Origin: Gnetum montanum
Taxonomy: Eukaryota > Plantae > Gnetophyta
Direction: 5' to 3'
NCBI GenBank assembly: GCA_015680685.1
Contig: MNCI01002192.1
Location: forward strand, 189,237 to 253,236
Length of the DNA: 64,000 bases
Shown here piece by piece: positions 4,730-49,258 of the stretch. The notes beneath the pieces were generated by a model that saw only the letters and a list, made by a program, of their open reading frames with translations, did no database searches and was not told the DNA's origin. Position numbers and translations under genes: made by a program. Numbering within the stretch: position 1 is the first letter of the stretch; every line of letters begins with the position of its first letter.

Positions 4730-5150
4730 ATCTGCTATAATGTAAAACTAGCAAACCATCATTCACTACAATGTAAAACTGGCAAAGCTTGTTCGCTATG
4801 ATGTAAAACTAGCAAAGGCAGTCCGCTACGACTATAAACTAGCACAAACTTTTTGCCATGATGCAAAACTGGCAAAGCATGTCTGCTACAATGTTAAACT
4901 GGCACAGATGGTATGCTATGACTTTAAACTGGCATATCCACTACCCGCTATGATGATAAACTAGCACTACAGTCTGCTGAGACCTTAAACCAACATAGTG
5001 GTCTACTAGGACCTTAAAATAGCACTGCCACCATTTGCTATGATGATAAACTAGCATTGCGGTCTGCTAGGATCTTAAACTAGCACACCACGGTTTGCTG
5101 AGACCTTAAACCAGCACATCAGATGGTCTACCAGGACCTTAAACTAGGTT
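4730..5150 (+). repeat. ~37-41-bp tandem repeat array in the 3' UTR of element A
   Basis: About 11 units of GTCYGCTAYGA...AAACTRGCA; tandem arrays downstream of pol are typical of Tat/Ogre elements. Confidence 0.85.
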
Positions 5151-10274: not shown

Positions 10275-12195
10275 TTCTTCATTCATGATCACATAGTCTA
10301 CTTCTCTAAGGTTCACAAAAATTGGGATATTCCTCTACTTGATATTAGTCCATGGTAAGGGCTCTTGTGAAAGGGTAGTAGTAGTTGCCTCCCCTGAAGT
10401 AGTAGTAATCTAGGAAGCTAAGGAATTAGACAACACTAGAGAGATTCTAAATAACTTAAAGGCCTTCTCTATGTTGATTTCTTGCTTGAACATCTTCAAA
10501 TTTTGGCTCTTTATAGCCTCCTCTTACAACCACTTGTAATAACTCTCCCTTTCTACCTTCTATTTGTGCTTGTGGTTTTTCCATGTCTTGCCCCACTCAA
10601 GGACCCAAGCAAAGTAGTCACATTAGTCTCTAATATTACGAACTAACAAGTCCACCTAGATATCATTTTTTGCATTTCTCCTAGGTAGAGAAACCTTGCC
10701 ATGGATGGGATTTTAGTAGTGTGGTCATTCTATATTCTTAGTGCACAAGGAGTATCTATAGGCTACATAAGCCTCTACAAACTTCTTATGGTTTCTAAGG
10801 TCTCTAATCTCCTCTCCCTACTACTTGGTTTCTTTCTCCAATGCTACAACTGTTTCTCATAGGAATTTCTTTGAATGTTTGTATTCCCACGAAATCTTGC
10901 CACATGAGAGGGCACATTCAATGGCACTCTTCTATAACCTTTGTGGAACATTTTCTACATCAAGCAGTAGTGTAAGAAACTTATCAAACTTAATGTTATG
11001 TTTAGGGTCCCATCCAACCTTAGACACTATAAACAACATAACAAAAATTTACATATAAAGACAATAAGTAAACAACAAAAATAATAAAAAATACTTTAAA
11101 CAACTAAGACCATGTAACCATAAAACGTAAAAAGACATTATATATATATATATATATATATACAAAAAAATATATAAAGAATAAAGTAATTTAGGTAAAG
11201 CATGCTATTGTTCTTAGCAACATCGAGAGCAATATGTTGCAATTGATCAATCATGTCTTCAACTGTACCATGCATAAACTCAATCTTATTAGGAACTTTA
11301 GCCCATTGTTTCATATAAAATGTGGAGTTGGATGCCTCTAGAAGGGGTTCAAACACTACAACAAGTATAACCATCACCTAAAAGTTAAAATCAAATTTAA
11401 CATGAAACTACATGATACAACACATAAACTAAAATGGATAAATACCTAGAGGACCATGCAGGATGTCAATGTGAGTTTCATCATCAAATGTTGAATCTTC
11501 AAATATGGCATCCAAGGCATTCAATGCTGCATTAGATATTAGTTCATCATCCTCTTGTTGCCTTAGTGCTTTCTCTTCTTGGTGTTTTTTCTATGCCTCG
11601 ATGGCTACTTGGGTTGCCAGCTCTTGTTGTTTTCCTATAAGAATGACAAAGACAAAACATAGAACAAGTTAGCAATTTTGCCTATAAAATTAATATGATC
11701 ACATAAATGTGCACATAACATAAATAATATGAAAGAGACCATAAAAACCAAGCACAAGAAAAAATTCAATTAGAACATACCTAAAAAATGTGATGTGCTT
11801 AGTTGATCCTAAGGGATATCTTCTTTTTCACTAGCTGCTCAATAATAGTGACCATCTCTTCAACTAGTGGTTAATTCAACTTTTCTTTGGTTGCACCATT
11901 AGCCTCAACACACAACTCCTTAGCTCTCTTAACACTTCCACAAGAAATATGGAGCTCAATCCCTATGTTGTTAGGGAAAGAACAATGTACACCACTCAAT
12001 TTCTTAGTGGTAATAGACAATGATTCTCCAATATCTTCAACTAGTGGGTTTTGAACCTACATGTCTAAAATAATATGTTTCACCCAATGTTTGGAAAATT
12101 AGAATGGATCATGGAATATCCATTTTCCATCCTTATTGACCACTGGGAATTCTAAGAACCTCCTTAAATATGCTACAAAAAATGAAAAATATAAG
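10275..12195 (+). repeat. 1.92-kb direct repeat, left copy (flank of the PLE chain)
   Basis: Collinear with 26244-28162 from TTCTTCATTCATG to AAAATAYAAG. Confidence 0.92.
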
Positions 12196-13380
12196 AGGGT
12201 TCCATTTCCTATTGCGAACATCATGGAGTTGATGAAGCCATTCAAGAAGATGCTATCTAGAGAAAGCAAGAACAAGGTTGAAGCAATGATCTAAGAAGTG
12301 AAAAGGATATCTTTGAGCACAAAGTCATCAAAAAAGCTATTGTCGAATCTGCTAAAGATCATCGAGGCAAGATTCTCTTATGAGGTATCACTTGATCTCA
12401 ACAACAATGAAGGATTTCTTTTGATGGCAAGGATGCCAAGAGGAGAAAGGGATGTATTGATAAGCATTTAAGGATTTTTGATAACACTAAGTAGAAAGAA
12501 TACAAGTGTTAACAAAGTTAGAACCCTTAAAGAAGGAAACATCCAAAATGTTTGCTAAGGAGCTAGATACTGAGGGAGTAATATTGATGGTAGGATAGAA
12601 AGAACCATACTAATTAAGTAACTAGAAGAGGGAATCCTATGAACTACTCAAAATGCCAAAGGCATCATCAATGTACCTTTTGAATTAGAGAAGATGCTTG
12701 GATCCTAGTGTAGAGAAAATTTGTTTCTCTAAGTGATAAAGAAATAGGCAAGCGTAGACAATGGCAAAGTTGCTACCCATGGTGGTGCCTTGAATCTATT
12801 TGTAGAAGACCCCGTTGAACTTCAAAAAATATTCTTGAAGGACCAAAGAGGCCAACTCCATGATAGCATTAATGTAGAAGACCTACAAATTAAAATCACT
12901 ATCCTGAAAATATGACTCAACCATAGCTTGAAGAGTAGCAAGGCCATGATCCGTGGGAATGCTAGGGTAGAGAGATTCTACATCAAAAGTGAAAAGAAAC
13001 ACATTTTGACGTAGGAATCTTGAGTGAAGGTCATGTATCAAGGTTCATGAGTCTGAAAGGTGGTATGGTTGAGAACAAAGGATGGGGAAAAGCAAGTAGT
13101 GGAGCAGGCAAAAGGTAGGTTCAAGCAAATAGTCTGAATACGAGTAGATAGGATGACTAATGAGAACAGGTTTATGGAGTTTAGGGATTAGGTAAAAAGT
13201 ACAAGGTTTGAAAGCAAAGACTTTGAAAAGGGGTCTCTTAAAATTAGAAAAAACTTGTGTAAAATGGTTGATCATAGAGAGAAGCTGATGACAAAGGAGT
13301 TCCCATGGAATGACGTCCACTTGTTGGTAGACATCAGTATTTGACAATTGTCTAATGACCTCTTGATAGTACCAAGTGGA
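12196..13380 (-). pseudogene. PLE RT fragment (5'- and 3'-truncated)
   Basis: ORF 13045-13401 KPCTFYLIPKLHKP; continues through YIDD to the thumb region. Confidence 0.88.
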
Positions 13381-13397
13381 TTGGATGACTATTGGAT

Positions 13398-13687
13398 GCA
13401 CATGACCATTATTCTATTTAACATGTATGTTTGCACATGACTATTACTCTATTTAACACACATGTTTGCACATGATCGTTACTCTATTTAATGCATATGT
13501 TTGCATATCACCATTACTCTATTTAATGCACATGTTTGTACATGACTGTTGCTTTATTTAATGCACATGTTTGCACATGACTATTACTCTACTTAATGCA
13601 CTTGTTTGCACATGACCATTACTCTATTAAATGCACATGTTTGCACATGACTGTTACTCTATTTAATTCACATGTTTACACATGACC
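13398..13687 (-). repeat. 35-bp tandem array (~8 units)
   Basis: Reverse complement of AATAGAGTAACGGTCATGTGCAAACATGTGCATTA. Confidence 0.95.
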
Positions 13688-13698
13688 ACATTGCCTAA

Positions 13699-13739
13699 AC
13701 ACACTGATGAGGGGTGTAAGTCCTAGAAATGTTTTGTGT
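13699..13739 (+). ncRNA. Degenerate minimal type I hammerhead ribozyme (variant a)
   Basis: ACACA-CTGATGA-GGGG-TGTAAG-TCCTA-GAAA-TGTTT-TGTGT. Both catalytic boxes are present and stem I pairs ACACA/TGTGT. Confidence 0.72.
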
Positions 13740-13904
13740 AACAACATACATTGTGCAATGCTATAAGCTTTTTATTACTTTCTATTTGATAGTTTTTCTA
13801 TTTTACAGTTCCTATAGTATTTCTCTCAGCCCTCCTATTTTATTACTTCCTAGATTTCATCAATAATTTTAAGTTTCCTAAAATTTTAAGTTTCTTACTT
13901 GCTT

Positions 13905-14703
13905 TTCCCATTTTTAAACTTCCAAAAGATCAAAGCATTGTTATCCATATTGCCAAAAAAATCTAGGTATTTGTGTCCTAGACTCCTCTTGGTACTATCA
14001 AGAGGCCATTAGACAATTGTTAGATATTAATGTCTACCAACAAGTGAACGTCGTTCCATGGGAATTCCTTCGTCATTGACTTCTTTCTATGATCAATCAT
14101 TTTCCACATATTTTTTCTAATTTTAATGAACCCCTTTCAAAATTCATAGCTTTCAAACCTTGTACTTTCTACTTGATCCCTAAACACCATAAACCTATTC
14201 TCGTTGGTCATCCTATCTGCTCCTATTCAGGCTATTTGCTTGAACTTGCTTCCCACCCACTCCACTACCTACTTTTCCCCATCCTTTATTCTCAACCATA
14301 CCATCTTTCAGACTTATCAGCCTTGATTCATGAGCTTCACTCCAGAGTCCTACCTCAAAATGTATTTCTTTTCATTTTTGATATAGAATCTCTCTACCTA
14401 GCATTCCCACGGATCATGGCCTTGCTATTCTTCAAGCTATGGTTGAGTCATATTTTTAGGATAACCCTTTTGATTTGTAGGTCTTCTACATCAATGCCAT
14501 CATGGAGTTAGCCTCTTTGGTCATTCAAGAACATTTTTTGAAGTTCAACGAGCTCTTCTACAAACAGATTCTAGGCGCCACCATGGGTAGGAACTTTGTC
14601 GTTGTCTATGCTTGCCTATTTTTATGTTACCTAGAGAAACAAATTTTCTCTACACCAAGCTCTGAGCATCTTCTCTACTTCAAAAGGTAAATTGATGATG
14701 CCC
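13905..14703 (+). pseudogene. PLE RT internal fragment ending just after the IDD motif
   Basis: ORFs 14089-14511 and 14502-14690. Confidence 0.88.
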
Positions 14704-16829
14704 TCTTGGTAGACATTAGTATTTGACAATTATTTGATGACCTCTTGATAGTACCAAGAGGAGTCTAAGACATAGATACCCAAATTTTTGTCAATAGTAT
14801 GAATAAACATGCTTCGATCTTTCTGAAGTTTAAAAAGGGTTCCAAGAAGATGTCAAGGAAGTAGAGGCCTCCAAGAAAAATCTAAAGAAGAAAGAGAAGC
14901 CTCAAGAGATGAGAGACAATCGAGAATAGATGTCTGTAGGTGTTGGTTGAAGTTGCTGGTGGGTAGATTCCACTTGCTTTGAAAACATAACTTCATCTTA
15001 GCAAGATGAATTTCTTCCAAAAAATGTGAAGAAGAAAGGTTTACCTCTTTTAGTTTCTCTTTGAAGAAGTTGCATAACCAAAGAAGTCTAGCAAAGGTAG
15101 CGAACTCCTTGAGAACTACACCACCATCTATGGGAAGAGGACAAGGAATGAATTTAAGGCCAAAACCTAGAACTTTGATTTCATTAGGAGAAAGATTCCT
15201 AAATGAAAAATTGTGAATGGCGAAGTTAGAAATGTGATTTTCTACTTCATGAATGAACTTATGTTCATGAAAGATTCCTAAATGAAGTAGAAAATCACCA
15301 CTTCCTAGAATTCTTACGTCCATCTTCTCTTCCAACATAAGGAGAGAAGATGGACGTAAGAATTCTAGGAAATGGTTGGGAGCCAAAATTTTAACCACAT
15401 GCGGGAGAGCAGTTTTTGAACTTTCTTCAGGTAGATATCTGGCACGATGTTCTTGGCCGTGGTGTAGATGGTGTAGATTTGTGTTGCTAATGATAGAAAC
15501 CTTGGTGTGATTCCAATCCAGATGGGCTAGAGGCACTGGAGGTGGAGTTCTTGTTCAGCTGTTAGTGGGGCCTAACCTAGGAAGGAGTTTTGCGAGCTAG
15601 GCACCAGCCATTTAAAGAAGAATTGACCTGAGGTCATTTTGGCTATGAGTGTCCCTAATGCTTGTGATTTTTCTTCTTTTTCTTATTCTGATTCTATGGA
15701 GGGTGATAGTGGGGTTGAGTGGGCTTGTTGGGGAGGATGCCAAAATCCTTCAACCATTCACCAATTTTTTTGAAACTGGAGTCCCATTCTTGTTGAATGG
15801 TTTCTTTGTAGACCTCCTTGATAGTAGGACCAGGGTCAAGGCGATGTACTTCAGTCTCCACAACTGAAGTAGCATACTTTTAGGTCTCTTTTGCTTTCTT
15901 CCAAGCTTTTTCATGGACCAAGAATGGAAGTCATTTATTTAGAAAAGCTTACTCAAGTTTTCTGGAGTATATTTGCAAAATATCATTGATGTATGAATTG
16001 GGTCGATTGATAGCTAAGATGCATTCAACCAACTTTGAATAAGCTTCATGTGAGAAAGAATCCAATTTTTTAATATTGTCTTTGGTGGATGCCATTTTTG
16101 CGTGAAGATAGCGTCTTGGTGTTTTAGATTGTGTTCTTTTTCGAGAGCAACAAAATCTACATAAAAGATGGTATCTCCTTTAGGCGTGGAAGCTTTAAGG
16201 CTTGGAACAGTAATGCGTAGACTTTGAACCAACAAATGTTTTGCGTGTAGTTTCTCAAGACACTCTATATTGTGGCAGGAGTGCTTTGCATTATGTAAGT
16301 TCTTATAGAGTCACTTAGCAATAGAGTTTATCATCTCCAACAACACTTCAGGAATTTGTAGTGAATCTCCATTGGCAGTAGATGAAGAAGATGTTTTGAC
16401 ATCATTCAACTGTTACCAAAGAGAATTACATTCAAACTAAAGTGAGTTGATGCAGGCCTAAGAATTTGCACGTTGTTGATGACAAAGACTTAATTTAGCA
16501 TTAGCTGTAAGATGTGCGTGTTCTACACAAAGCTCATGAATGTGATTAATGAAGTTTTCATAGATCACTTCTGTCTATTCTGAAGGCTTGGAATGGAAAT
16601 CTAGTTTAAGATATTCCAAGGAAGCATATGGAAGTCCATGAACTAGATAGTTGAAACAACACAAACCTAATTGTAGATTCATGTCATGCTCCGTATAAGA
16701 ATCTAGTAGACAAGATATTTTTCATGAAGAGCTAGCAGAGGGAACATTCTTTGAGCATTGCATGGAATTAGTAGTGTGGGGTTGGTTCCTTGAAGAAGAG
16801 GTAGAAGGTTGCCAATCTGCAGAGCTCAT
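14704..16829 (-). pseudogene. PLE ORF1 plus N-terminus of the RT ORF
   Basis: Starts MSSADWQPSTSSSRNQP at 16829 and is an inverted homolog of 23082-25170. Includes NFSFRNLSPNEIKVLGFGLKFIP, a PLE RT N-terminal motif. Confidence 0.82.
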
Positions 16830-16974
16830 TTTCTTTAGGCAGCAAAATAGATGAGAAATTTAGGGTACTTAAAATTTTAAGTAAGATCTCATGCGATTGA
16901 AGAAAAGACAAAAAGATAGAAGGACCAAAAGGAACAAATTAAGAGAAAGGCTCAAACATAGAAGCAAAGCTACT

Positions 16975-17016
16975 ACATAAAATATTTTAAAGAAATATCA
17001 CCCCTCTTCAGTATGT
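16975..17016 (-). ncRNA. Degenerate hammerhead ribozyme (variant b)
   Basis: ACATA-CTGAAGA-GGGG-TGATAT-TTCTT-TAAAA-TATTT-TATGT. The GAAA box has decayed. Confidence 0.5.
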
Positions 17017-17090
17017 TTATAGAAGCAATCCTTGAAATGTGGTTTAAGCAACAAGTATAGGATGAGAATTTATAGAGTCCCAACTTCAAA

Positions 17091-17357
17091 AATAGAGTAA
17101 CGGTCATGTGCAAACATGTGCATTAAATAGAGTAACAATCAAGTGCAAACTTGCGCATTAAATAAAATAACATTCATGTGTAAACATGTGCATTAAATAG
17201 AGTAACGGTCATGTGCCAACATGTGCATTAAATAGAGTAACGATCATGTCCAAACATGTTCATTAAATAGAGTAATGGTCATGTGCAAACATGTGCATTA
17301 AATAGAGTAATGGTCATGTGCAAACATACGTGTTAAATAGAATAATGGTCATGTGCA
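17091..17357 (+). repeat. 35-bp tandem array (~7.6 units)
   Basis: Unit starts at 17091, 17126, 17161, 17196, 17231, 17266, 17301 and 17336. Confidence 0.95.
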
Positions 17358-17373
17358 TCCAATAGTCATCCAA

Positions 17374-18557
17374 TCCTCTTGGTACTATCAAGAGGCCATC
17401 AAACAATTTTTAGATACTAATATTTACCAACAAGTGGACATCGTTCCATGGGAACTCCTTCATTGTCGGCTTCTCTCTATGATCAACCATTTTCCACAAG
17501 TTTTTGTTAATTTTAAGAGACCCCTTTTGACAGTCTTGGCTTTCAAACCTTGTACTTTCTACATGATTCCTAAACTCCATAACCTATTCTCATTAGTTGT
17601 CCTATCTACTCCTATTCAACCTATTTGCTTGAACCTACCTCTTGCCTGCTCCACTGCCTACTTTTCTCTATTCTTTGTTCTTAACCATATCATTTTTTAG
17701 ACTCATTAGCCTTGATCCATGACCTTTAGTCTAGAGTCTGACCTCAAAATGTGTTTCTTTTCACTTTTGATGTAGAATCTCTCTCCCCTACCATTCCCAC
17801 AAATCATGGCCTTGCTACTCTTCGAGCTATGGTTGAGTCATATTTTTAGGATAACCATTTTGATTTGTAGGTCTGCTACATTAATGCCATCATGGAGCTA
17901 GCCTCTTTGATCTTTCAAGAATATTTTTTAGAGTTCAATGGGGTCTTCTACAAATAGATTCAAGGCACCACCATGGGTAGCAACTTTTTTGTTGCCTATG
18001 CTTACCTATTTCTTTATCACTTAGAGAAACAAATTTTCTCTATACTAGGCTACAAACATCTTCTCTACTTCAAAAGGTACATTGATGATGCTTTTGGCAT
18101 TTTGAGTAGTTCACAGGATTCCCTCTTCTAGTTACTTGATCGGTATGGTTCTTTCTATCCTACCATCAATATTACTCCCTCAGTATCTAGCTCCTTAGCA
18201 AACATTCTGGATGTTTCCTTCTTCAAGGGTTCTAACTTTCTTAACACTAGTATTCTTTCTACTTAGTGTTATAAAAAATCCTTAAATTCTTATCAATACA
18301 TTCCTTTCTCCTCTTGGCATCCTCGTCATTAGAAGAAAGCCTTCATTGTTGCTGAGCTCAAATGATACCTCATTAAATAATCTTGCCTCGGTGATCTTCA
18401 ACAGATTCGACAATAAATTTTTTGATGACTTTGTGCTAAAGGATATCCTTCTCACTTTTTGGCTCATTACTTCAACCTTGTTCTTGCTTTGTCTAGATAG
18501 CATCGTCTTGAATGGTTTCATCAATGCTATGATGTTCGCAATAGGAAATGGAACCCT
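17374..18557 (+). pseudogene. PLE RT fragment, inverted copy of 12196-13380
   Basis: Same 5' and 3' junctions as 12196-13380. Confidence 0.88.
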
Positions 18558-19306
18558 CTTATATTTTGCATTTTTTGTAGCATATATAAGGAGGTTCTTA
18601 GAATTCCTTGTGGTCAAGAAGGATGGAAAATGGATATTCCATGATCCATCCTAATTTTCCAAACCTTGGGTGAAACATATTTTTCTAGACATGTAGGTTC
18701 AAAACCCACCAATCGAAGATATTGGGGAATCATTGTCTATTACCACTAAGAAATTGAGTGGTGTACATTGTTCTTTCCCTAACAACATGGGGATTGAGCT
18801 CCATATTTCTTATGGAAGTGTTAAGAGGGCTAAGGAGTTGTGTGTTGAGGCTAATGGTTCAACCATAGCAATTTGAAGCAACCACTAGTTGAAGAGATGG
18901 TTACTATTGTTGAGCAGCTAGTGAAAAAGAAGATATCCCTTAAGATCAACTAAGCAGATCACATTTTTTACGTATGTTCTAATTGAATTTTTTCTTATGC
19001 TTGGTTTTTATGATATCTTGCATATTATTTATGTTATGTGCACATTTATGTCATCATATTAATTCTAGAGGCAAAATTTCTAACTTGTTCTATATTTTGT
19101 CTTTGTTATTCTTATAGGAAAACAACAAGAACTAGTAACCCAAGTAGATGTAGAGCCATAGAGAAAACACCAAGAAGAGAAGGCACTAAGGCAACAAGAG
19201 GATGATGAACTAATAGCTAATGAAACATTGAATTCCTTGGATGCCATATTTGAAGATTCAATGTTTGATGATGAAACTCACATTGACATCCTACATGGTC
19301 CTCCAG
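18558..19306 (-). repeat. Inverted partial copy of the target flank (11446-12195) embedded in the PLE chain
   Basis: Reverse complement of the flank, including one intron, attached to the same PLE junction. Confidence 0.9.
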
Positions 19307-20042
19307 GAATCACACCAAGGTTGTTGTTGTTAGCAATGAAACTCTACACCATCTACGCCATAGCCAAGAACATCGCTATAGACTTCTTCCTAAAGAAAGT
19401 TCAAAAATAACTCTCCCACACATGGTTGAACTTCTAGCTCGTAACCATTTCTTAGAATTCTTATGCTCATCTTCTCTTCCAGTGTAAGTTCATTCACAAA
19501 GTAGAAAATTACATTTCTAACTTCGCCAATCACAATTTTTCATTTAGGAGTCTTTCTTCTAATGAAATTAAAGTTTTTGTTTTTGGCCTTAAATTCATTC
19601 CTTGTCCTCTTCCCATGGACCATGGTGCGGTTCTCAAGGAGTTCACAACCTTTGCTAGATTTCTTTGGTTACACAACTTCTTTAAAGACAAACTAAAAGA
19701 GGCAAACCTTTCTTATTCACCTTTTTTGGAAGCAATTCATCTTACTAAGATGAAGTTATGTTTTCGAAGCAAGTGGAATGTGCCTACCAATAGCTTCAAC
19801 CAACACCTAGAGACATCTTTTCTTTATTGTCTCTCATCTCTTGAGGCTACTCTTTCTTATTTAGATTTTTCTTGGAGACCTCTGCTTCCTCTACATCTTC
19901 TTGGAGCCCTTTTTAAACTCTAAAAAGATCGAAGCATTGTTATTTATCCTGTTCACAAAAATTTTTGTATCTGTGTCTTGGACTCCTCTTGGTACTATTA
20001 AGAGGTCATCAAAAAATTGTCAAATATTGATGTCTACCAAGA
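19307..20042 (+). pseudogene. PLE RT N-terminal fragment
   Basis: Inverted copy of ~14704-15512; includes ORF 19615-19923. Confidence 0.85.
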
Positions 20043-20840
20043 GGGCATCATAAATGTACCTTTTGAAGTAGAGAAGATGCTTGAAGCTTGGTGTAAAGAA
20101 AATTTGTTTCTCTAACATAGAAGTAGGAGAGCGTAGATAATGACAAAGTTGTGACCCATGGTGGTGCCTCAAAATCTATTTGTAGAAGAGCCCATTGAAC
20201 TCCAAGAAATGTTATTGAACGACCAAAGAGGCTAGCTCCATGATGGAATTGATGTAGAAGGCCTGCAAATCAAAAGGGTTATCCTAAAAATATGACTCAA
20301 CCATAGCTCAAAGAGTAGCAAGGCCATGATCCATGAGAATGCTAAGGTAGAGAGATTCTATATTAATAGTGAAAAGAAATACATTTTGAGGTTGCACTCT
20401 AGAGTGGAGGTCATGAATCAAGGCCAATGAGTTTGAAAGATGGTATGGTTGAGAATAAAGGATGGGGAAAAGCAGGTAGTGGAGAAGGTGGGAGGCAAGT
20501 TCAAGAAAATAGCCTAAATAGGAGTAGATAGTACGACCAATGAGAACAGGTTTATGGTGTTTAAGGATTAGGTAGAAAGTACAAGGTTTGAAAGCTATGA
20601 ATTTCAAAAGGGATTCCTTAAAATTAGAAAAAACCTATGTAAAATGATTGATCACAGAGAGAAGCCAATGATGAAAGAATTCCCATGGAACGAAGTTCAC
20701 TTGTTGGTAGTCGTTAGTATCTAACAATTGTTTGATAGCCTCTTGATAGTACTAAGAGAAGTCTAGGACACAGATACCTAGATTTTTGTCAGCAGGACAA
20801 ATAATAATGCTTTGATCTTTTTGGAGTTTAAAAATGGGAA
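20043..20840 (-). pseudogene. PLE RT internal fragment
   Basis: Inverted copy of 13905-14703; includes ORF 20308-20607. Confidence 0.85.
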
Positions 20841-20990
20841 AAGCTAGGAAACTTAAAATTTTTTAAGAAATCTTATGTGTTAAGGAAAAGAACAAGAGGG
20901 CTGAGAGAAATACTATAGGAACTATAAAACAGACAAACTGTTAAATAAAAAGTAATAAAAAGCTCATAGTAGTGTACAAAGTATGTTGTT

Positions 20991-21032
20991 AAACAAAACA
21001 TTTTTTGGGACTTACACCTCTCATCAGTGTGT
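20991..21032 (-). ncRNA. Degenerate hammerhead ribozyme (variant a)
   Basis: ACACA-CTGATGA-GAGG-TGTAAG-TCCC-AAAAAA-TGTTT-TGTTT; a copy of 13699-13739. Confidence 0.55.
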
Positions 21033-21045
21033 TTAGGCAATGTAG

Positions 21046-21358
21046 TCATGTGCATTAAATAGAATAACGGTCATGTGCAAACATGTGCATTAATTAGAGT
21101 AATGGTCATGTCCAAACATGTGCATTAAATAGAGTAATGGTCATGTGCAAACATGTGCATTAAATAGAGTAATGATCATGTGCAAAATGTCCATTAAATA
21201 GAGTAAGGATCATGTGCAAATATGTGCATTAAATGGATTAATGATCATGTGCAAACATTTGCATTAAATATAATAATAGTCATGTGAAAACATGTGCATT
21301 AAATAAAGTAACAGTCATGTGCAAACATGTGCATTAAATAGAATAACAGTCATGTGCA
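21046..21358 (+). repeat. 35-bp tandem array (~9 units)
   Basis: Same unit as the other two arrays. Confidence 0.95.
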
Positions 21359-21373
21359 TCCAATAGTCATCCA

Positions 21374-22796
21374 ATCCTCTTGGTACTATCAATAGGTCAT
21401 CAGACAATTGTTAGATACTAACATTTACAAATAAGTGGACGTCATTCCATGGGAATTTCTTCGTCGTCAACTTCTCTATATGATCAACTATTTTCCATAG
21501 GTTTTCTTTAATTTTAAAGGATGCTTTTTGAAAGTCTCAACTTTCAAACCTTGTACCTTCTACTTGATCTCTAAAATCCGCATAAACCTATTCTCATTGG
21601 TCATCCTATCTACTCCTATTCAAGCTATTTGCTTGAACCTGCCTCTCGCCTACTCCACTACCTACTTTCCCCATCCTTTGTTCTCAACCATACCATCTTT
21701 TAGACTTGTTAGCCTTGATCATGGCCTCCACTCCAGAGTACTACCTCAAACTATGTTTATTTTCACTTTTGATGTAGAATCTCTTTACCCTAGCATTCCC
21801 ATGGATCATGGCCTTGCTACCTTTCAAGCTATGGTTAAGTCATATTTTGAGAATAACCTTTTCGATTTGTGGGACTTCTACATCAATGCCATCAGGGAGC
21901 TTGCCTCTTTAGTCCTTCAAGAACATTTCTTGGAGTTCAATGGGGTATTCTACAAATAGATTCAAGGCATCGCCATGGGTAGAAATTTTGCCATTGTCTA
22001 CGCTTGCCTGTTTCTATGTTACTTAGAGAAAGAAATTTTCTCTACACCAAGCTTCGAGCATCTTCTCTACTTCAAAAGGTACATTGATGATGCCTTTAGC
22101 ATTTGGAGCGATTCATAGGATTCCCTCTTCTAGTCACTTTATTGGTATGGTTCATTATATCCTATCATCAATATCACTCCCTTAGTATCCAGCTCTTCAA
22201 CAAACATTTTTGATGTTTCCTTCTTCAAGGGTTTTAACTTTGTTAATACTAGTATTCTTTCTACTAAGTGTTATAAAAAATCCTTAAATGCTTATCAATA
22301 CATTCTTTTCTCCTCTTAGAATCCTCAGCATTAGAAGAAAGCCTCCATTAATTCTGAGCTCAAACGATACCTCATCAGAGAATTTTGCCTCAGTGATCTT
22401 CAATAGATTTGACAACAGCTCTTTTGATGACTTCATGCTTGAGAATATCCTTCTCGCTTCTTAACTCATTACTTCAACCTTGTCCATACATTTTCCAGAT
22501 GACATCTTCTTGAATGGCTTCATCAATGCCATAATGTTCGCAATAGGAAATGGACACCTCTTGTCTTAAAATTGGATTTTAGTCCTTTCACTAAATCCTT
22601 GAACTTGATGGTCCTCCTAAACCCCATACATGTTGGGCTCCACAAAAAAGATTGAATTCTCAAAAAAATCATTTTTGATGTTATTTCATGTTGAAGGAAT
22701 CCTAGAAAACTTTATTCTTTTCTCATCAAGAAAAAATTCAAGAGCAGTAGTCCCATGCCCATATTAGCTCGAACAAGTGACGTCCATTCTATTTAA
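21374..22796 (+). pseudogene. PLE RT, 5'-truncated but with its native C-terminus
   Basis: FTFDVESLYPSIP, YIDD, then TPLVLKLDFSPF...RNPRKLYSFLIKKKF...DVHSI-stop (TAA 22794-22796). No endonuclease domain follows. Confidence 0.85.
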
Positions 22797-22902
22797 TGCA
22801 CATGATTGCACATGACCGTTACTCTATTTTTGAAGTTAGGACTCTATAAATTCTTATTATACCCTTATTGCTCAAACCACATTTTAAGCATTGCTTCTAT
22901 AA

Positions 22903-22944
22903 ACATACTGATGAGAGGTGAGATTCCCTAAAATTTTTTTATGT
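22903..22944 (+). ncRNA. Degenerate hammerhead ribozyme (variant b) in the pseudo-LTR / 5' UTR
   Basis: ACATA-CTGATGA-GAGG-TGAGAT-TCCC-TAAAA-TTTTTT-TATGT, lying between the RT stop of the upstream copy and the ORF1 ATG. Confidence 0.58.
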
Positions 22945-23081
22945 AGTAGCTTTGCTTCTATGTTTGAGCATTTCTCTTTATTTGTTCGTTTTTATCCTTT
23001 TATCTTTTCTTCAGCCACACAAGATCTTACTTAAAATTTTAAGTATTCTAAATTTTTCCTCTATCTCACTACTTGAAGAAA

Positions 23082-24362
23082 ATGAGCTCTACAAATTGGC
23101 AACCTTCTACCTCTTCTTCAAGGGACCAACCCCACACTGCTAATCCCATGCAGTTCCTAGGTAATGTTTCCCCTGCTAGCTCTTCATAGAAAAGATCTTG
23201 TCTACTGGATTCTTCTACGAAGCATGACATGAATCTATAATTAGGTTTGTGTCATTCCAACTGTCTAGTTCATGAGCATCCATATGCTTCCTTGGAATAT
23301 CTTGAACCAGATTTTCATTCCAAGCCTTTAGAATAGATGGAAGAGATCCGCACAGACTTTTTTTGTCGTGATGATGAGCTTTGTGCAGAACATGCACGTC
23401 CTACAATTCAGCTTCATGCAGAATATGCACATCTTATTGATGCTCTCCATGCTAAATTAAGTCTTTTCCATCAACAAATTGTAGATTCTCAAGCTCACAT
23501 CAACTCACTTTAGTCTGAATGTGATTCTCTTTAGCAATAGTTAAATGATGCCAAAACATCATCTTCTCTTGCTACCAATGGAGATTCACTACAAATTCCT
23601 AAAGTGTTGTTGGAGATGACCAACTTTGCTATTAAGGAACTCTACAAGCACTTTCACAATGTAGAGCGCTCCATCATAACAAAGAGTGTCTTGAGAAACT
23701 ACATGCAAAAAAGCTATTATTTCATAGTTTATGCATTGCTGCTCTAGGCCTTAAAACTTTCGCCCCTGAAGGAGATGCCATCCTTTAAGCAGATTTTGTT
23801 GCTATCCAAAAAGAGCACAATCCAAAACTTTAGGAAGCTTATCTTCATGCTGAAATGACATCCTCTGAAGCTAATCTTAAAAAATTAGATTTTTTTCTAG
23901 CATGAAGCTTTTCAAAATTTGGTTAAATGTATCTTAGCTATCAATCAACCCACTTCATACATTAATGCTCTTTTGCATATCTATTTCAAAAAACTTAAGA
24001 AAGCTTTTCTAAATGAATGGATTTAGTTTTAGATCCATGCATAAGCACAAAAGAAAGTAGAAGAGACTTGAAAGAATGCTGCTTTGGTTGTAGAGACTAA
24101 AGCAGATCGCTTTGATCCTAGTCCTACCATCAAAGAGGTCTATAAAGAAACCATTCAACAAGAATGGGACTCCACTTTCAAAAAATTTGGTGAATGGTTG
24201 AAGGATCATGACATCCTCCTTGCTAAACCTGCTTAACCTCACTGTCGTCCTCTGTAGAATCAGAATAAGAAAAAGAAGCAGAATTGCAAGTAGCAGGGTC
24301 ACAAACACCAGTGACACTCATAGCCAAAACAACCTAAGGTCGATTCTTCTTTAAACGACTAG
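23082..24362 (+). pseudogene. PLE ORF1 (~420 codons, basic NKKKKQ tail), disrupted
   Basis: Starts MSSTNWQPSTSSSRDQP; homologous to 16829-15600 (-); ends TCT TTA AAC GAC TAG. Confidence 0.7.
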
Positions 24363-24396
24363 TGCCCAGCCTACAAAACTCCTTCCCAGGCTGGGT
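24350..24396 (+). promoter_or_regulatory. Putative -1 programmed ribosomal frameshift signal
   Basis: T TTA AAC in the ORF1 frame, a 7-nt spacer, then stem GCCCAGCCT/AGGCTGGGT. The -1 frame equals the frame of RT ORF 24548-24889. Confidence 0.75.
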
Positions 24397-26140
24397 CCCA
24401 CAAATAGCTGAATAAGAAGAACTCCACCTCCAATGCCTTTGGGCCATCTAGCTCAGAATCACACCAAGGTTTCCATCATTAGCAATGCAACCCTACACCA
24501 TAGACTTCTTCTCGAAGAAATTTCAAAAGCCACCCTCCTACACATAGTTGAACTTTTGGATCCCAGCCATTACCTATAATTCTTATGCTTGTATTCTCTT
24601 TGAGCGTAAGTTAGTTTGTGAAGTAGAAAATCACATTTCTAACTTCACCATTCAAAATTTTTCATCTAGGAGTCTTTTTCTTGATGAAATCAAAGTTCTT
24701 GATTTTGGCCTCAAATTCATTTCTCATCCTCTTCCCATGGATCATGGTGTGGTTCTTAGGGATTTCACTACCTTTGCTAGAATTCTTCGATTACACAACT
24801 TATTTAAAGACAAACTAGAAGAGGTAAACCTTTCTTCTTCACCTTTTTTGAAAGTAATTCATCTTGCTAAGATAGAGCTACATTTTTGAAGCAAGTGGAA
24901 TTTCCCTGCCAGTAGCTTCAACCAACACCTGGAGACATCTATTCTTGATTATCTCTCGTCTTTGGAGGATACTCTTTCTTCTTCAGATTTTACTTGCAGG
25001 CCTATGCTTCCTCGATGTCTTCTTGGAGCCCTTTTTAAACTCTAGAAATATTGAAGCATTGTTATTCATCTTGCTGATAAAAATATGGGTTTCTGTGTCT
25101 TGGACTCTTCTTGGTACTATCCATAGGCCATTAGATAATTGTCAAATACTGATGTGTACCAACAAGTGAGCATCGTTACATGGGAATTCCTTCATCATCA
25201 GCTTCTCTCTATGATCAACTATTTTTCATAGGTTTTCTCTAATTTTAAGGGATCCATTTTGAAAGTACCTTGTGCTTTCTACCTGATCCCTAAACTTCAT
25301 AAACCTATTCTCGTTGGTCATCATATTTGCTCCTATTTAGGCTATTTACATGAACCACCCTCCCACCTACTCCACTACCTACTTTATCCCATACTTTGTT
25401 CTCAACCATATCATCTTTCAGACTTGTTAGCCTTGATCTATGACCTCCACTCCAAAGTCCTACCTCAAAATGTGTTTTTTTTTTTACTTTTGATGTAGAA
25501 TCTCTCTACCATAGCATTCCCATGGATTATGGCCTTGCTACTTTTTGAGCTATGGTTAAGTCATATTTTTAGGGTAACCCTTTTAATTTGCAGATCTTCT
25601 ACATCAATTCCATCATGGAGCTAGCCTCTCTAGTCCTTCAAGAACATTTCTTGGAGTTCAATGGGGTCTTCTGCAAATAGATTTGAGGCATCACCATAGG
25701 TAGCAACTTTGTCATTGTCTACGCTTGCCTATTTCTATGTCACTTAGAGAAACAAATTTTCTCTACCCTAAGCCCTAAGCATCTTCTCTACTTCAAAAGG
25801 TATATTGATGATTCCTTTGGTATTTGGAGGGATTCACAAGATTCCCTCTTCTAGTTACTTTATCGGTATGGTTCTTTCTATCCTACCATCAATATTATTC
25901 CCTCAATATCATAGCTCTTCAACAAACATTTTTGATGTTTCCTTCAGTATCTAACTTTGTTAACACTAGTATTCTTTCTACTAAGTGTTATAAAAAATCC
26001 TTGAATACTTATGAATACATCCCTTTCTCCTCTTGGCATCCTCACCATCAAAAGAAAGCCTTCATTGTTTCTAAGCTCAAATCATACATCATCATAGAAT
26101 CCTACCTTAGTGATCTTCAGTAGATTCAACAATAGTTATT
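24350..26140 (+). pseudogene. PLE RT ORF2, 3'-truncated and disrupted
   Basis: ORFs 24548-24889, 25259-25498 and 25824-26123 carry PLE RT motifs. Confidence 0.88.
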
Positions 26141-26144
26141 TTGA

Positions 26145-26248
26145 GTACCCAAAAACTTAAAATTTTAAGTACCAAAAATTTTAAATTTTCTAAAAATTTG
26201 AAGTACCCAAAAATTAAAATTTTAAGTACCAAAAATTTTAAGTTTCTT
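26145..26248 (+). repeat. Reiterated AAAATTTTAAGT(ACC/TTC) junction filler
   Basis: About five imperfect copies of a motif also present in the PLE UTRs (13865-13895, 16866-16882, 23029-23046). Confidence 0.75.
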
Positions 26249-28162
26249 CATTCATGTTCACCTAGTCTACTTCCTTAAGGTTGAAAACAATTGGGATATT
26301 CCTCTACTTGATATTAGTCCATGCTAAAGGCTCTTGTGAAAGGGTAGTAGTAGTTGCCTCTGTTGAAGTAGTAGTAATCTAAGGAGCTAAGAAATCAAAC
26401 ACCACTACAGAGATTTTAAATAGCTTAAAGGCCTTCTTTGTGTTGATTTCTTGCATGAACATCTTCAACTTTTGGCTCTTTATATCATCCTCTTGTAACC
26501 ACTTATAATAACTCTCATTTTATACCTTCTATTTGTGCTTGTGTTTTTTTTCATGTATTGCCCCCCTTAAGGACCCAAGCATAGTAGTCTTCTTAGTCTT
26601 TGATCTTACGAACTAACAAGTCCATCTAGATATCATTTTTTGCATTTCTCCTAGGTAGATCAACCTTGCTATGGATGGGATTCTTGTAGTGTGGTCATTC
26701 TATCTTCTTAGTTCACAAGGAGTCTCTATTGTCTACACAAGCCTCTACAAACTTCTTATGGTTTCTAAGGTCTCTAATCTCCTCTGCCTACTACTTGGTT
26801 TCTTTCTCCAATGCTACAACTCTCTCTCATAGGAATTTCTTTGAATGTTGGTATTCCCATGAAGTCTTGCCACATGAGAGGGCACATTCAATGGAACACT
26901 TGTATAACCTTTGTGGAACATTTTCTACTTCAAGCGGTAGTGCAAGCAAGTTATCAAGATCAATGTTATGTTCAGGGTCCCATCCAACCTTAGACATTGT
27001 AAGCAACATAACAAAATTTACATATAAAGACAATAAGTAAACAACAGAAATAATAAAAAATACTTTAAGCAACTAAGATCATGTAACCATAAAACATTAA
27101 AAGCCATAAAATATATATATAACAAAATATATAAAAATATATAAAGAATAAAGTAATTTAGGCAAAGCATTCTATTGTTCTTACCAACATCAAGAGTAAT
27201 ATGTTGCAACTGATCAATCATATCTTCAACCATACCATGCATAAAGTCAATCTTATTAGGAACCTCATCCCATGGTTTCATACAAAATATGGAGTTGGAT
27301 GCCTCTAGAAAGGGTTCAAACACTACAACAAGTATAACCATAAACTAAAAATTAAAATCAAATTTAACATGAAACTACATGATACAACACATAAACTAAA
27401 ATGCATAAATACCTGGAGGACCATGCAGGATGTCAATGTGAGTTTCATCATCAAATTTTGAATCTTCAAATATGGTATCCAAGGCATTCAATGCTTCAGT
27501 AGGTATTAGTTCATCATCCTCTTGTTGCCTTAGTGCATTCTCTTCTTGGTGTTTTCTCTATGCCTCTACAGCTACTTGGGTTGCCAGTTCTTGTTGTTTT
27601 CCTATAAGAATGACAAAGAAAAAATATAGAAAAAATTAGCAATTTTGCCTATATAATTAACATGATGACATAAATGTGCACATAACATAAAGAATATGCA
27701 AGATACCATAAAAACCAAGCATAAGAAAATATTGAATTAGAACATACCTAAAAAATTTGACGTGCTTAGTTGATCCTAAGGGATATCTTCTTTTTCACTA
27801 GCTACTCAACAACAATAACCATCTCTTCAATTAGTGGTTGCTTCCACTTTGCTTTGGTTGAACCATTAGCCTCAACACACAACTCCTTAGCTCTCTTAAC
27901 ACTTCCACAAGAAATATGGAGCTCAATTCCCATGTTGTTAGGAAAAGAACAATGTACACCACTCAATTTCTTAGTGGTAATAGATAATGATTCCTCAATA
28001 TCTTCGACTGGTGGGTTTTGAACCTACATGTCTAGAATAATATGTTTCACCCAAGGTTTGGAAAATTAGGATGGATCATGGAATATCCATTTTCCATCCT
28101 TCTTGACCACTGGGAATTCTAAGAACCTCCTTAGATATGCTACTAGAAATGCAAAATACAAG
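26244..28162 (+). repeat. 1.92-kb direct repeat, right copy
   Basis: Collinear with 10275-12195; continues into the uninterrupted exon at 28163. Confidence 0.92.
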
Positions 28163-31100
28163 TGGCATATTGTCTCAAGGTTGTTTCAGAATTTTGGATC
28201 TCATCCTATAGCCCAGAGACCTATTGAGTAGCCTAGTTAACCTTAGCACCTTCGATGAGGACCTTCTTCATGGTCCAAGCTTGTTGAATGCTAAGGATCT
28301 TCTTTTGCAATATCAACATGGGTAACGACCTAGAGCAAAACAATGGATACATCTCATTAACTTTTATTATGTAGCACTAGTCTAGAGGCAACCCATTGCT
28401 ACCACGATGAATGCTAAGCCATTCTTTGATCTCCTCTCTATGATCTATCCCTTTCCCTACCTTTATGGAAACCTTCATGTCATCAAAAGGTATGCCAAAT
28501 AAGACATTAAACATGGATTAATTGATTACCAAGATGACATGCACACTATTAACATGAGAGATGAATTTCTTAACTCCTTTTTCAAAAGAGTTAATGACAT
28601 TTACCATCTCTACAATAGGCATGGATGGGCTAGGAATCATAATTAGATTGAGCAAACCTGCATTGACAATCTTTTCCTAGATCTCTCTAGGTGCTCTACC
28701 AGTTGATCACTCTTGTGCTAAATCTACTTTGCCCCACTTAAGAATTAGTGTCTCCTTTTCACCTCCCAAGGTGATTATGGAAATAGTAGATTTAGGCATA
28801 AGATCTAAAATAGAACATGAACAACCAATTATCCTTTAGAATAAGCACACCACACAAGTAAAGTATATATATAACAAACATAGTAAAAAATCAAAATTAA
28901 ATTTTTAACCACATAGTTAAAACCCATTAAAAAATTAAGGCCTAAACAACTAAAAAACAAATAGAGAACATTAACATTAATAATCAAAAAATTAAAAAAA
29001 ATAAAAACTATTAAATTTTCTTATCTAGTTTCAGTAATGTAGGGGGTCCTAAAAGCCACAAGTGCATGTATGCCTAAGTCAGAAAGGCCCCACTAAATAG
29101 GAACAATCCTATTCACCAAACACTTGTGGTAGACTTTATAGTAACATGAAGTGTATATTCTGAAGTCATCCCTTAGTTGCTACAACACCATGAGTCTCAC
29201 ATGGGACCCTTGTGTAAAAACCTCCAATGATGTGTGTGCCAAGGGTAGAACTTGGTCACTCTTGATTAATTCTTCATTGTGCACTTTATACCTACACCAT
29301 AAAAATTCAACAAAAAAGTCTTAGGATAAAATAGTCTAATGAAAATAACAAGTGAAAAAAAAACATAGAATGGCACTTATGCTTGTAACTAGTATATAGT
29401 GCCAGAAGGATTTTGAAATAAAGTGTGGACTTGATGGCCTATCATTAATTTGTTGTTCACATTATACAAAATAAACTCAGGCATATCCCAAATTTGGGAT
29501 AACTTGTGTGTTCCTAGTGTGCACATATCATCGTGATGGTCACATTCCATACAAGTGGTAGGGCAATCTACCATGAACTTGACAATGAGACTAGTAGGAT
29601 GGGGTAGCAAAGTCTTTTCAATAACAACTACAGTGTCAAAGGCCAAGTGTAATCGTAAGATTATACTAAAGTTCTTCAATAGGAATGCTAAGAACTCTTT
29701 AGCCCTAGGCCTAAACCAAGGAGAACTATGATCCAAGACCATGTTAGGTAGCAAACTATTTGGTCCTAGGATATTTATGTAGCATAGAATCCCAACCATT
29801 TCAATTACCATTAGGATGGATTTCAAAAAGGCTCTACATAACCAAACAAAACCATTAAAACATAAAAGATTAGTAAACAAAAATTAACAAAAAATAAACA
29901 AAAAATGATGAATATAATTTCAATTTTCAAATATTAAATTCAAAATAAATTAAAGGCAAAATAATAAAATACAAAACTTCAAACTATCAATATTTTCACT
30001 TAAAAACTATGTAGAATATCAACACAAAACATTTATGAAAATCACATAGTTAAATAATGCATTAGAAATTTTTACATTAAGCATTAAAATATGAGAAAAA
30101 TACTATAATAAGTTTAAAACCATGATTAAAAATGTGTTAATGGTTGTGAAAATTTCAACTTAAGTTTGAAAAAATGTTGACTAGAAATCCTAGTTTATAG
30201 TGAAAAAACTATAGGAAAGTTGGATAAAAATTTCAAGAAGATTAGATAGATATTGAGAACCAAAATAAGCCATGTAAATGACCATTAGAGATCTTAAAAT
30301 ATCCAATAAAACATAATAAGTATAACAACACTACTAGTGCAAGCTGGGAAGCTTGCATGCTCAGCAAGTAAAACTACAACTGTATAGGGTAGTTCATGTG
30401 AACAATAATTTGAAAACAAAATTACCAAAAATTATTTTTCTAAGTTTAGGAAATGTAAACATACATAATTTAAGAAAACTTCTATACCAAAATTCCAATA
30501 ATGGGCATAGAAAAATTCACATTGTCGCTTGGAATCACTTTGAATTTTTTTCAAAAAATCTGGTTTGTAGTGAAACCTCTAGGAAAATTATGAGAAACTT
30601 TTCAAAAATTCTAAAACCTATTTAGAACCCTACTACACTATCCCATAAACCCTCAAAAGACTAGGATGTTCATAGAAAAATAGCCAAAGTATGCCAATGC
30701 TACTAGTCTTCGAAGGCCAAAAATAGCATTGTGCTTTGGTCTATGGAAAAAATCATAAGAAATTAACTGTAGCTCCAAAAATAGTGATTCAACCATTGAT
30801 GAGACCATTAAACACCATAGAATAACCTTATGGCATGAAAAACTAGAACTTTTATATCTAACCCTAATAAAATATTGTAAAGTTTAAACATTCTTTGGTA
30901 ACAAATTGTCAAAAACACATAGGATGGGCCAAAAAAATTCATAATTTTATAAAAAGAGTCCCTAAGGTTAAAATCACAACATGAGTTCATCAAAATAACC
31001 TAGATGCTACATTTAACACATATAAAACCAAATTTTCCCAAACACAAACCTAGGCATTACAAAATGCCTTCATACTACAGTAAAAATTGGTTGAAAATAG

Positions 31101-31859
31101 TTAATGAAGGGTACTTGGCAATCATGTTGGAAGAGCTTTTCTAATGGATGGTAATGGGAGGTGGGTGATTCCTCTACTAGTAGCCTTTTCCTCCTCTGGT
31201 GCTAAGTTCCTTTTGATTCCTCCTCTCCTCTTTAACATCTTGCAAGGATGAGATGAAATCTTTAGTTTCTTTATAACTACGCTACCTTGGTGATGGGAAA
31301 TAGAAAAAAATACATTGACTATGGATAGAAATATGGTAAAAAATGGCTGAAAATATTGTTTAACAACCTCTACTCCAAGAAAAAATCTAGAAAAAATAGT
31401 TTTCATAAAAATTCCAATGATGAAGCCCTCCATATACGTATGCATTAGTACGATAACCTTCACATCCAAAATGCCTACACAACATCGAGTGAACTCAATG
31501 GTCACATATGAAAAGTGATAAATATGCTAGGTTTACTTGGTTTTGAGTTTCAAATAATCTTTTAACCTTGGGTAGGCCCCATAGGGTTCCTCCTAAATAA
31601 ACCACAAAAAATCCCAATACAATGGGATTTATAATTTTAAACAAAAAATACACTAGGGATTAATGCCCAAGTAAACATTGAAAACTTGGAATGGATTCCA
31701 AGATCTATCCATGGTGAAGGTACATCTTCTAGCTATCCATGATTGATCCATTGTGGTTAATAAATTCCCATCTCAAACTAGAAATCCTAGACATTACCAT
31801 AAGAGGACTCTAGTTTCTAATAATGGTCAAAAAAACCCCTAAAACAAAGAATTCCAAGC

Positions 31860-33242: not shown

Positions 33243-33884
33243 ATAAGTGATAGCACATTTATTCAAAATGCTTTATTTTTATCTTCAAATTGGCTCAAAA
33301 TGATCTCCCTGAGTGCCCAAGCATTTTTATTAATCTTGGTGCCTCCCACCATGGTCCGCTAAGGCATAAAATTGGAAAAATGTGACCTTGATTGACCAAT
33401 ATTCACAATGTTTTACCACATGTTACCTACCTTTATTGGTTTGGCCTTATTCCACTATGTTTTAGCTTGATCTAACCTTGTTTCACATTATTGTCTATCA
33501 TTTCCATATCATTTGGTGTCATCTGATCTCATTTTCATCATTTCTATAACATTTGGCTCTATCCCACCATAATTTTCTATCATTTGACATTATTTTAACT
33601 TAGTTGACTTGATTTGACATCAACTAATGTCATACTTTAATTAGACCTTATTCAAACTTTCTTGACATCATTTTATGGGGTTTGACCATCATTTGGCCTT
33701 TGTTTCAAATTATTTGATTTAACCTACCCCTTATAGCCTTTGTTGACCATGTTTGAACCTTTTTTAACCCTTTATATATTGTGTTTTGACAAATATAGGC
33801 ATTATTACACAATTTTTTACATTGACACCATTTAATAATTTTATCACATAGGTGTTACTCAATGTGCTTATGGAAGATTAGATT

Positions 33885-49251: not shown

Positions 49252-49258
49252 AAAGAAC

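Follow-up and report, generated by a model that had tools for sequence, protein, structure and literature searches.

A Chain of Penelope-Like Element Copies Between Two Copies of a 1.92-kb Host Segment in Gnetum montanum: Anatomy and Possible Origin by Break Repair

How endonuclease-less Penelope-like elements (PLEs) insert away from telomeres is treated as an open question in section 9 of PMC8557442. A locus of Gnetum montanum raises this question in readable form. In the 64-kb stretch of DNA analysed here (the window), a PLE chain lies between two copies of a host segment. A sequence-only reading had proposed that both ends of a broken chromosome primed cDNA synthesis inward, and that a 14-kb chain and a flanking duplication resulted. 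The chain measures 14,048 bp and contains no N; N gaps occur elsewhere in the window.

The element and the layout of the chain

Searches with the reverse transcriptase (RT) yielded 48 matches, the best with 49-55% identity to Cryptomeria and Gb_-labelled proteins, and a profile search extended to Selaginella and Microbotryum proteins. In a quick tree built from 38 of the 139 proteins, the RT fell inside a 99-supported clade with a Selaginella moellendorffii protein; the window row was flagged for composition. By its sequence, the RT clusters with proteins of gymnosperms, in a clade of land plants that includes this Selaginella protein. The PLE label given to it here derives from these tree and profile neighbours; the databases give these proteins no such label.

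The match of RT copy e stops at 22745, at the last residues of its relatives. A loose GIY-YIG motif had no match in six frames of the chain and one among the 139 proteins compared (the distant P0048). The GIY-YIG Pfam family (PF01541) was absent among the 120 profile-search matches listed. Hence, the element appears to be one without a recognised endonuclease, its frame ending after the RT, in agreement with the sequence-only reading. ORF1, a decayed 1.5-kb frame present twice in the chain, may hide an unrecognised nuclease; it had no Pfam match in three frames and none to 78 loci or 139 proteins of relatives. Pfam searches on RT copy a, ORF1 and host frames were informative in 0 of 13 cases.

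The left copy L of the host segment (10275-12195, plus strand) derives from a multi-copy, intron-like/coding host repeat. It adjoins RT copy a (12196-13376, minus), a single frame of 393 codons interrupted by 14 stops, which is 3'-truncated at this left junction. On the plus strand follow a linker of about 20 nt with a 35-bp tandem array of 8.3 units (13377-13688), a type 1 leader (13689-13907) with a hammerhead-like core at 13704 (by eye) and the palindrome AAAATTTTAAGT as its end, and RT middle piece b (13908-14702). The RT N-terminal piece n1 (14706-15261, minus) is followed by a scar of short locally templated pieces (15262-15342) with a hairpin at 15297-15376; it is missing at the equivalent places of the right arm. 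ORF1 copy 1 and a type 2 leader (15343-17089, minus) come next; this leader carries a decayed hammerhead-like core near 17011 and a palindrome, then one CCCTAAA (16859-16865). An array of 7.7 units plus linker (17090-17376, minus), the proposed fold-back point, leads to RT copy c (17374-18557, plus), a sister of a that ends in the same host junction. It continues into the inner inverted host copy I (18558-19310, minus), 752 bp corresponding to 11442-12195, whose end meets the right arm at 2-3 nt of microhomology.

The right arm begins with the ORF1 end and RT N-terminal piece n2 (19307-20040, plus), followed on the minus strand by RT middle piece d, a sister of b (20044-20837), and by a type 1 leader, an array of 8.9 units and a linker (20838-21377). 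All further parts lie on the plus strand. RT copy e (21375-22787) has a complete C-terminus and a short 3' region with no endonuclease after it. One 35-bp unit and a type 2 leader with a core at 22908 (22788-23081), the decayed ORF1 copy 2 (23082-24585) and RT copy f (24587-26144) complete the arm; f runs from its own start to a 3' truncation and has variants in common with e. A 99-bp filler (26145-26243) connects f to the right host copy R (26244-28162), beyond which native host sequence continues (28163-28200) that is present in other family copies too. The chain thus holds partial-tandem and inverted 5'-truncated copies: e stands head to tail before leader, ORF1 and f, and an inverted piece adjoins its 5' end.

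Decayed hammerhead-like cores were found by eye in four leaders, and the pattern matched in 11 of the 20 closest loci. Rfam returned no hammerhead, only sub-threshold miRNA-like matches, mostly on the hairpin 15297-15376. The leader-end motif lies 125-176 nt past the core in all four leaders. Aligned array distances (A1-A2 0.121, others 0.138-0.139) are weakly informative.

Three copies of the host segment

The flanks align over 1925 columns (10275-12198 versus 26244-28165). The coordinates of the sequence-only reading held, its equality of the two flanks did not: there are differences in 167 of 1918 columns (91% identity), 88 of them transitions and 79 transversions, spread evenly over the flank length. 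In addition, that reading had missed a third host copy. The region 11442-13664 recurs inverted at 19310-17090 inside the chain, so that the terminal 752 bp of the flank are present once more, together with the left junction. The three copies are star-like, with distances of 0.074 (L-I), 0.073 (L-R) and 0.069 (I-R) and odd-one-out counts of 27, 24 and 23 in 754 columns. They belong to one age class.

This bears on stepwise growth, in which insertion and duplication came first and a read-through transcript of copy a with 752 nt of host DNA (3' transduction) later re-inserted locally as the inner inverted copy. Here, c and I do read as a single sense unit that runs out into host DNA, and PLEs are described in PMC6431247 as transducing host DNA. 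However, L-I is not below L-R or I-R, and one end of the inner copy is in register within the 35-bp array, which makes this course quite improbable.

The flanks could also be separate truncated members of the host family that the chain joined by deletion or fusion, with no duplication at all. The family has many copies: 1046 of the 2756 run X1 contigs compared, most of them short, resemble the stretch to 90% or more, so the L-R identity is not clearly above family background. Against this stand the star-like pattern of L, I and R and derived letters in common: of eight listed sites at which L departs from the family majority, R carries the L letter at three (P about 0.02 under independence of sites), which would also be compatible with two copies of one close subfamily. 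Furthermore, eight of nine long in-flank pieces listed differ from L by 16-20% and one by 10%, in a listing that favours long, diverged contigs. We regard separate members as very unlikely. Divergence of the flanks far above that among the PLE copies, named beforehand as the result that would speak against a duplication, was not found: transversion distance is 0.041 for the flanks and 0.028-0.045 among RT copies. The 95% intervals overlap (about 0.016 to 0.059), so that events a few million years apart are inseparable by divergence.

The host family exits the flank at 12190 in 20 contigs of run X1 and 21 of run X5. Their consensus agrees in 24 of 30 letters with what follows R, and in 12 of 30 with the PLE side; in the paralogues, the right edge of the duplicated segment therefore reads as native. 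For the left edge of L, native order is suggested by a few stop-free codons only. Among 304 candidates, no longer homologue of one host frame was present, and so no host protein is usable across both duplication edges. Subterminal-like repeats occur at 32045-33244, and they give the impression that the host repeat is a putative DNA transposon.

An assembly artefact would be favoured by the N gaps elsewhere in the window, by the repeat-rich chain and by the lack of a contig spanning the stretch among the matches listed. It is nevertheless extremely improbable. All repeats are 7-19% diverged, the locus itself has no N, and the left junction is present twice in diverged form. Moreover, a run X8 contig (organism D) bridges this junction over 12119-12410 with 31 differences in 292, where L and I differ by 29. 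No empty allele showed up among the contigs, whose source runs probably postdate the event.

Junctions, templates and a possible repair event

Both outer RT copies, a and f, are 3'-truncated and face outward, as the sequence-only reading had noticed. At the left junction, the minus-strand RT is cut about 58 residues short of its C-terminus (residue 548 of the 606 of P0003), and native element CCTCTTGT and native host CCACTTGT share a short microhomology at the switch point, again as first described. At the right junction, the plus-strand RT is truncated as claimed, near residue 503 of 606, but the 99 bp that follow are more than plain filler. They contain a 19-nt exact sense match to leader 2 (maximum 16 in 60 letter shuffles) and share TTCTT with the host start. 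The filler is not random: the motif found at the end of the element's leader is repeated in it about five times, in sense orientation. Such a sense filler could also arise if the top strand were extended by a DNA polymerase.

The same inversion junctions occur in both arms, and b/d and n1/n2 are mutually closest copies. Judging from these relations, both arms are copies of one composite template. Since the right arm lacks the left-arm scar and the left arm reaches beyond the point where the right arm begins, neither was copied from the other as DNA. Of the listed letters off the family majority, a has 10 of 32 in common with c, versus 3/32 with e, 3/27 with f, 5/19 with b and 1/19 with d. Copies a and e occupy the same template place, yet they are not close (p about 0.15-0.16); a two-ended model consequently needs an added template change. 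Three template lineages are present in the chain.

On balance, we think it probable that this single locus is an old chain at the breakpoint of a 1.92-kb host-repeat duplication, formed in one repair event with both DNA ends priming inward reverse transcription. The polarity at both junctions counts in favour of it. So does the in vitro behaviour of a Penelope-clade protein, which extended both strands and started inside its own RNA (PMC11167929). We infer five steps. A break or fork collapse would have left two ends, each with the 1.92 kb. The left 3' end would have used the short microhomology to prime inside the RT frame, from where about 5.2 kb of the composite template (12196-17357) would have been copied. 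For the right 3' end, priming would have taken place at the leader-end palindrome; after about five restarts, it would have jumped into the RT frame to copy about 6.8 kb (26144 to 19307) with one template change. The left cDNA, ending in the antisense 35-bp array, may have folded back on the sense array of its own strand and then copied 752 host nucleotides together with RT piece a. Finally, the two new ends would have joined at 19307-19310 by the 2-3 nt microhomology. The polarity fits the original picture of inward priming from both ends, which left the inverted host copy unaccounted for; this copy calls for an extra fold-back or template-switch step.

The polarity taken alone is also compatible with healing of one end and subsequent DNA template switching. 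Here, only the left end would have been extended by the element; the rest would be due to fold-backs, DNA template switches and, last, break-induced replication after invasion of an intact sister or homologue at a point 1.92 kb upstream, with polymerase-theta-like restarts producing the filler. Such a course yields the duplication without any 1.92-kb stagger and accommodates the templated scar at 15262-15342 and the microhomologies at the junctions. The topology presumably resembles that of a duplication / inverted triplication / duplication. However, the 4.8-kb sense block e-ORF1-f would need a DNA or antisense RNA source, the e/f lineage is absent from the left arm, the nearest source of the filler motif is 3 kb off rather than beside the junction, and no telomere repeats lie between units. 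Although break-induced replication and internalisation of terminal chains are proposed in section 8 of PMC6431247, we consider healing from one end a possible but rather unlikely explanation.

Relation to known systems

Kilobase-scale direct flanking duplications, with a median of 900 bp, are described for the Dualen-4b LINE (PMC9977147). Dualen differs in being a LINE with two endonucleases, to which its authors ascribe the stagger. Without a recognised endonuclease, a duplication by element-encoded staggered nicks is not indicated by the sequence of the Gnetum element, and the ends would, unlike in Dualen, stem from host damage. The literature searched contained no co-duplication at Chlamys insertions, the long duplications belonging to Dualen, and no kilobase flanking duplication for any PLE. 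Human L1 events comprise twin priming, two-RNA insertions, foldbacks and small tandem duplications (PMC11702581). They resemble the two-ended reading in RT extension from both ends, cDNA self-annealing, templated insertions and microhomology joins, but are somatic and due to an endonuclease-bearing LINE, whereas the plant PLE locus is inherited.

PLE-X of Chara and Selaginella are endonuclease-less and located away from telomeres, too. According to section 9 of PMC8557442, they differ by a Chlamys-group origin with CxC motifs, and no kilobase duplications are described there. Terminon chains of bdelloid rotifers, as presented in section 8 of PMC6431247, are likewise long chains of endonuclease-less units with captured host DNA. 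By comparison, the units of the Gnetum chain are not separated by telomeric caps and are of mixed polarity; there are just two ORFs, and host DNA adjoins the chain on both sides.

The locus can be considered a readable fossil of a non-telomeric PLE insertion, with paired outward 3' ends, a kilobase duplication, a fold-back host copy and, at one junction, repeats of the leader-end motif as signatures. Should these recur across the many copies of the family, a telomerase relative would be producing duplications in large plant genomes by acting as a polymerase in break repair. Otherwise, the locus represents a single complex, ancient rearrangement among decayed repeats. That a gymnosperm lineage of telomere-type PLEs regularly spreads off telomeres by patching two-ended, replication-born breaks, with both-end priming, telomerase-like restarts on the palindromic motif, and kilobase tandem duplications and host fold-backs as its regular signature, is a speculative and unlikely generalisation at present.

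Close in structure are endonuclease-deficient PLEs of the Selaginella, Coprina and Athena types. As far as described in PMC8557442, PMC6431247 and PMC12477314, they share the RT frame without GIY-YIG and the partial-tandem and inverted 5'-truncated copies, and may also share the upstream ORF and the hammerhead-like core after the RT. In contrast to them, both host junctions in Gnetum are internal truncations within a kilobase flanking duplication, and a palindrome instead of adjoining telomere repeats stands at the leader end. The window contains no tandem telomere unit, which fits the interstitial setting first proposed; single CCCTAAA motifs (17, with 11.5 expected) are not above chance. In the relatives L002 and L011, telomere-complement repeats begin at the equivalent leader place (177 nt). 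Among the 20 closest loci, such repeats are found on the sense strand in nine, several of them upstream of the RT, and on the other strand in none.

Flank copies and their age

In a self-comparison of the window, 10275-12198 aligns to 26244-28165 with 91.0% identity over 1925 columns. The sequence-only reading had called the left (L, 10275-12195) and right (R, 26244-28162) host flank copies equal. The coordinates hold, the equality does not: 167 of 1918 columns differ, including 79 transversions. Between these direct copies lies, as that reading had proposed, a chain of Penelope-like element (PLE) pieces comprising 14,048 bp without N. Overlooked at that stage was an inverted repeat of 11442-13664 at 19310-17090, found by the same self-comparison. 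The left junction thus occurs a second time, together with 752 bp of host DNA as inner copy I (18558-19310). Misassembly is barely credible, as a contig of organism D (source of contig run X8) spans this type of left junction. The locus is a real, old and complex insertion; it is single and decayed, and its mechanism is inferred.

Transversion distances amount to 0.031-0.041 among L, I and R and to 0.028-0.045 among the six RT core copies, so that the flank divergence does not exceed that among the PLE copies; a far higher flank divergence would have refuted the sequence-only reading. Compared to 0.004 for the LTR pair at 41055/50519, these values make the event about 10 times older than the LTR insertion. 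Transitions and transversions are nearly equal between L and R (88:79; LTR pair 73:7); prior CG depletion of the host sequence (CG observed/expected 0.07-0.09) is the likely reason. L, I and R are related in a star-like manner (27/24/23). By informative transversions, the RT copies fall into the pairs a/c (12196-13376, minus strand; 17374-18557, plus), b/d (13908-14702, plus; 20044-20837, minus) and e/f (21375-22787 and 24587-26144, both plus). Copies a and c have 10 of 32 letters unlike the family majority in common, and the array units nearest the junctions beside them share variants. Stepwise growth of the chain is considered quite unlikely.

Identity of the element

RT copy a stays in a single frame throughout, with 14 stops in 393 codons. 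It matches 48 of 963 candidate proteins, the best (49-55% identity) from Cryptomeria japonica and a Gb_-labelled set, presumably Ginkgo gene ids. A profile built from 26 of the 48 extends to proteins of Selaginella moellendorffii, Closterium and Microbotryum. A quick tree, calculated with 38 of the 139 proteins, groups the window RT with the Cryptomeria and Gb_ proteins within a clade holding the Selaginella protein; a gymnosperm is thus the likely source. Copy e can be matched up to the final residues of its relatives, reached at 22745; a 35-bp unit, leader, ORF1 and RT come next, and the chain contains no GIY-YIG-like motif. Among the best 20 of 78 related loci, a hammerhead pattern is present in 11; tandem telomere-complement units occur in 9, all on the sense strand (none on the other). 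In two intact relatives (L002, 5839-6300; L011, 5768-6302), telomere-complement repeats begin 177 nt behind the hammerhead pattern, and L011 terminates in a run of them. Judged by RT relatives, the missing GIY-YIG-like motif and these units, the element belongs to the telomere-associated PLEs lacking an endonuclease. The locus itself is devoid of telomere repeats, with no tandem telomere units in the 64-kb window. The PLE family has many copies: at every place of copy a, dozens of distinct contigs align (4 runs).

Host repeat, junctions and leaders

The host flank is part of a multi-copy repeat. At least 20 contigs in run X1 and at least 21 in X5 leave it at the right edge (none for X7 or X8 among the rows listed), and their consensus has 24 of 30 letters in common with what follows R. 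Therefore, flank-then-28163 represents the native order, which is interrupted in the left copy. For native continuity at L's left edge, only a few stop-free codons can be cited. Eight of nine listed long contig pieces within the flank differ from L by 16-20% and one by 10%, in a list biased toward diverged contigs (1046 of 2756 X1 contigs reach a similarity of 90% or more). Of eight listed sites at which the family majority deviates from L, R agrees with L at three. Two host copies instead of a duplication appear improbable. At 31855-33244, a motif of about 28-45 bp is dispersed in direct and inverted copies, resembling DNA-transposon subterminal repeats; the host element probably has its right end here.

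At the left junction, the native sequences are CCTCTTGT (element) and CCACTTGT (host). The filler reported at the right junction exists as 99 bp of extra sequence and is made of leader material: a palindromic motif is repeated about five times, and 19 nt match leader 2 (in 15343-17089 and 22788-23081) exactly, compared with at most 16 nt in 60 shuffles. The repeats' flanking letters are in sense orientation, and TTCTT is common to filler and host start. The motif is located 125-176 nt beyond the hammerhead-like core in four of four leaders, approximately where telomere-complement repeats start in L002 and L011. Truncated RT pieces are joined to leader 1 (13689-13907; again in 20838-21377) at this motif, too. 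Its position and these joins suggest the motif as the end at which the element is normally primed. The leaders at 13689-13907 and 22830-23081 share the 35-bp array, hammerhead-like core, terminal palindrome and little more; both have a pyrimidine tract that resembles an intron acceptor and terminates in CAG or similar. Copy I joins the right arm (19307-26144) with 2-3 nt microhomology at 19307-19310. An 80-bp scar of local pieces (15262-15342) is confined to the left arm.

Mechanism and precedents

Followed inward from the host ends, both arms (the left from 12196) represent antisense copies of a single composite template, in which array, leader 2 and ORF1 precede the RT start, the RT middle in inverted orientation, leader 1 plus array (likewise inverted) and the RT remainder. 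Neither arm was copied from the other at the DNA level. In its middle 2 kb, the chain holds the left junction in inverted form, starting in the 35-bp array; this structure would be expected of single-stranded cDNA that folded back on itself and then continued into host DNA. A single two-ended repair event is slightly favoured as origin of the locus. Fork restart or paired nicks could provide two ends both carrying the 1.92 kb. One-ended healing, followed by a template switch to an intact sister or homologue, would yield identical polarity and is rather unlikely.

All individual ingredients have precedent. Excerpts of PMC8557442 describe partial tandems and inverted 5' copies of PLEs as well as endonuclease-less PLE-X away from telomeres, by a route the paper calls unknown. 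For Terminons, break-induced replication was proposed for internalisation (PMC6431247, in part), and the plant example of telomere-associated PLEs in sections of PMC12477314 is Selaginella. According to parts of PMC11167929, an endonuclease-bearing PLE initiates internally and extends both strands. The median Dualen duplication is 900 bp (PMC9977147 and preprint, extracts), and L1 shows twin priming, foldbacks and small tandem duplications (PMC11702581, extracts). For the combination in an endonuclease-less PLE, no precedent was found. The literature searched, a weak basis with subscription papers mostly outside its coverage, yielded neither a kilobase flanking duplication at any PLE nor a description of this gymnosperm clade.

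The window contains further repeats. By self-comparison, the LTR retrotransposon at 41055-52348 has LTRs of 1.83 kb (95.4% identical); its minus-strand order is gag, protease, RNase H, RT. RNase H ahead of RT is reminiscent of the Tat lineage, whose elements carry an additional RNase H. Three older pieces of another retrotransposon family (1699-4707, 33681-38122, 52550-57285) show 65-76% mutual identity in the self-comparison, the first with RT and RNase H domains at 1762-3276. Tandem arrays of 67-bp and 30-bp units are located at 62632-62987 and 4734-5147, respectively.
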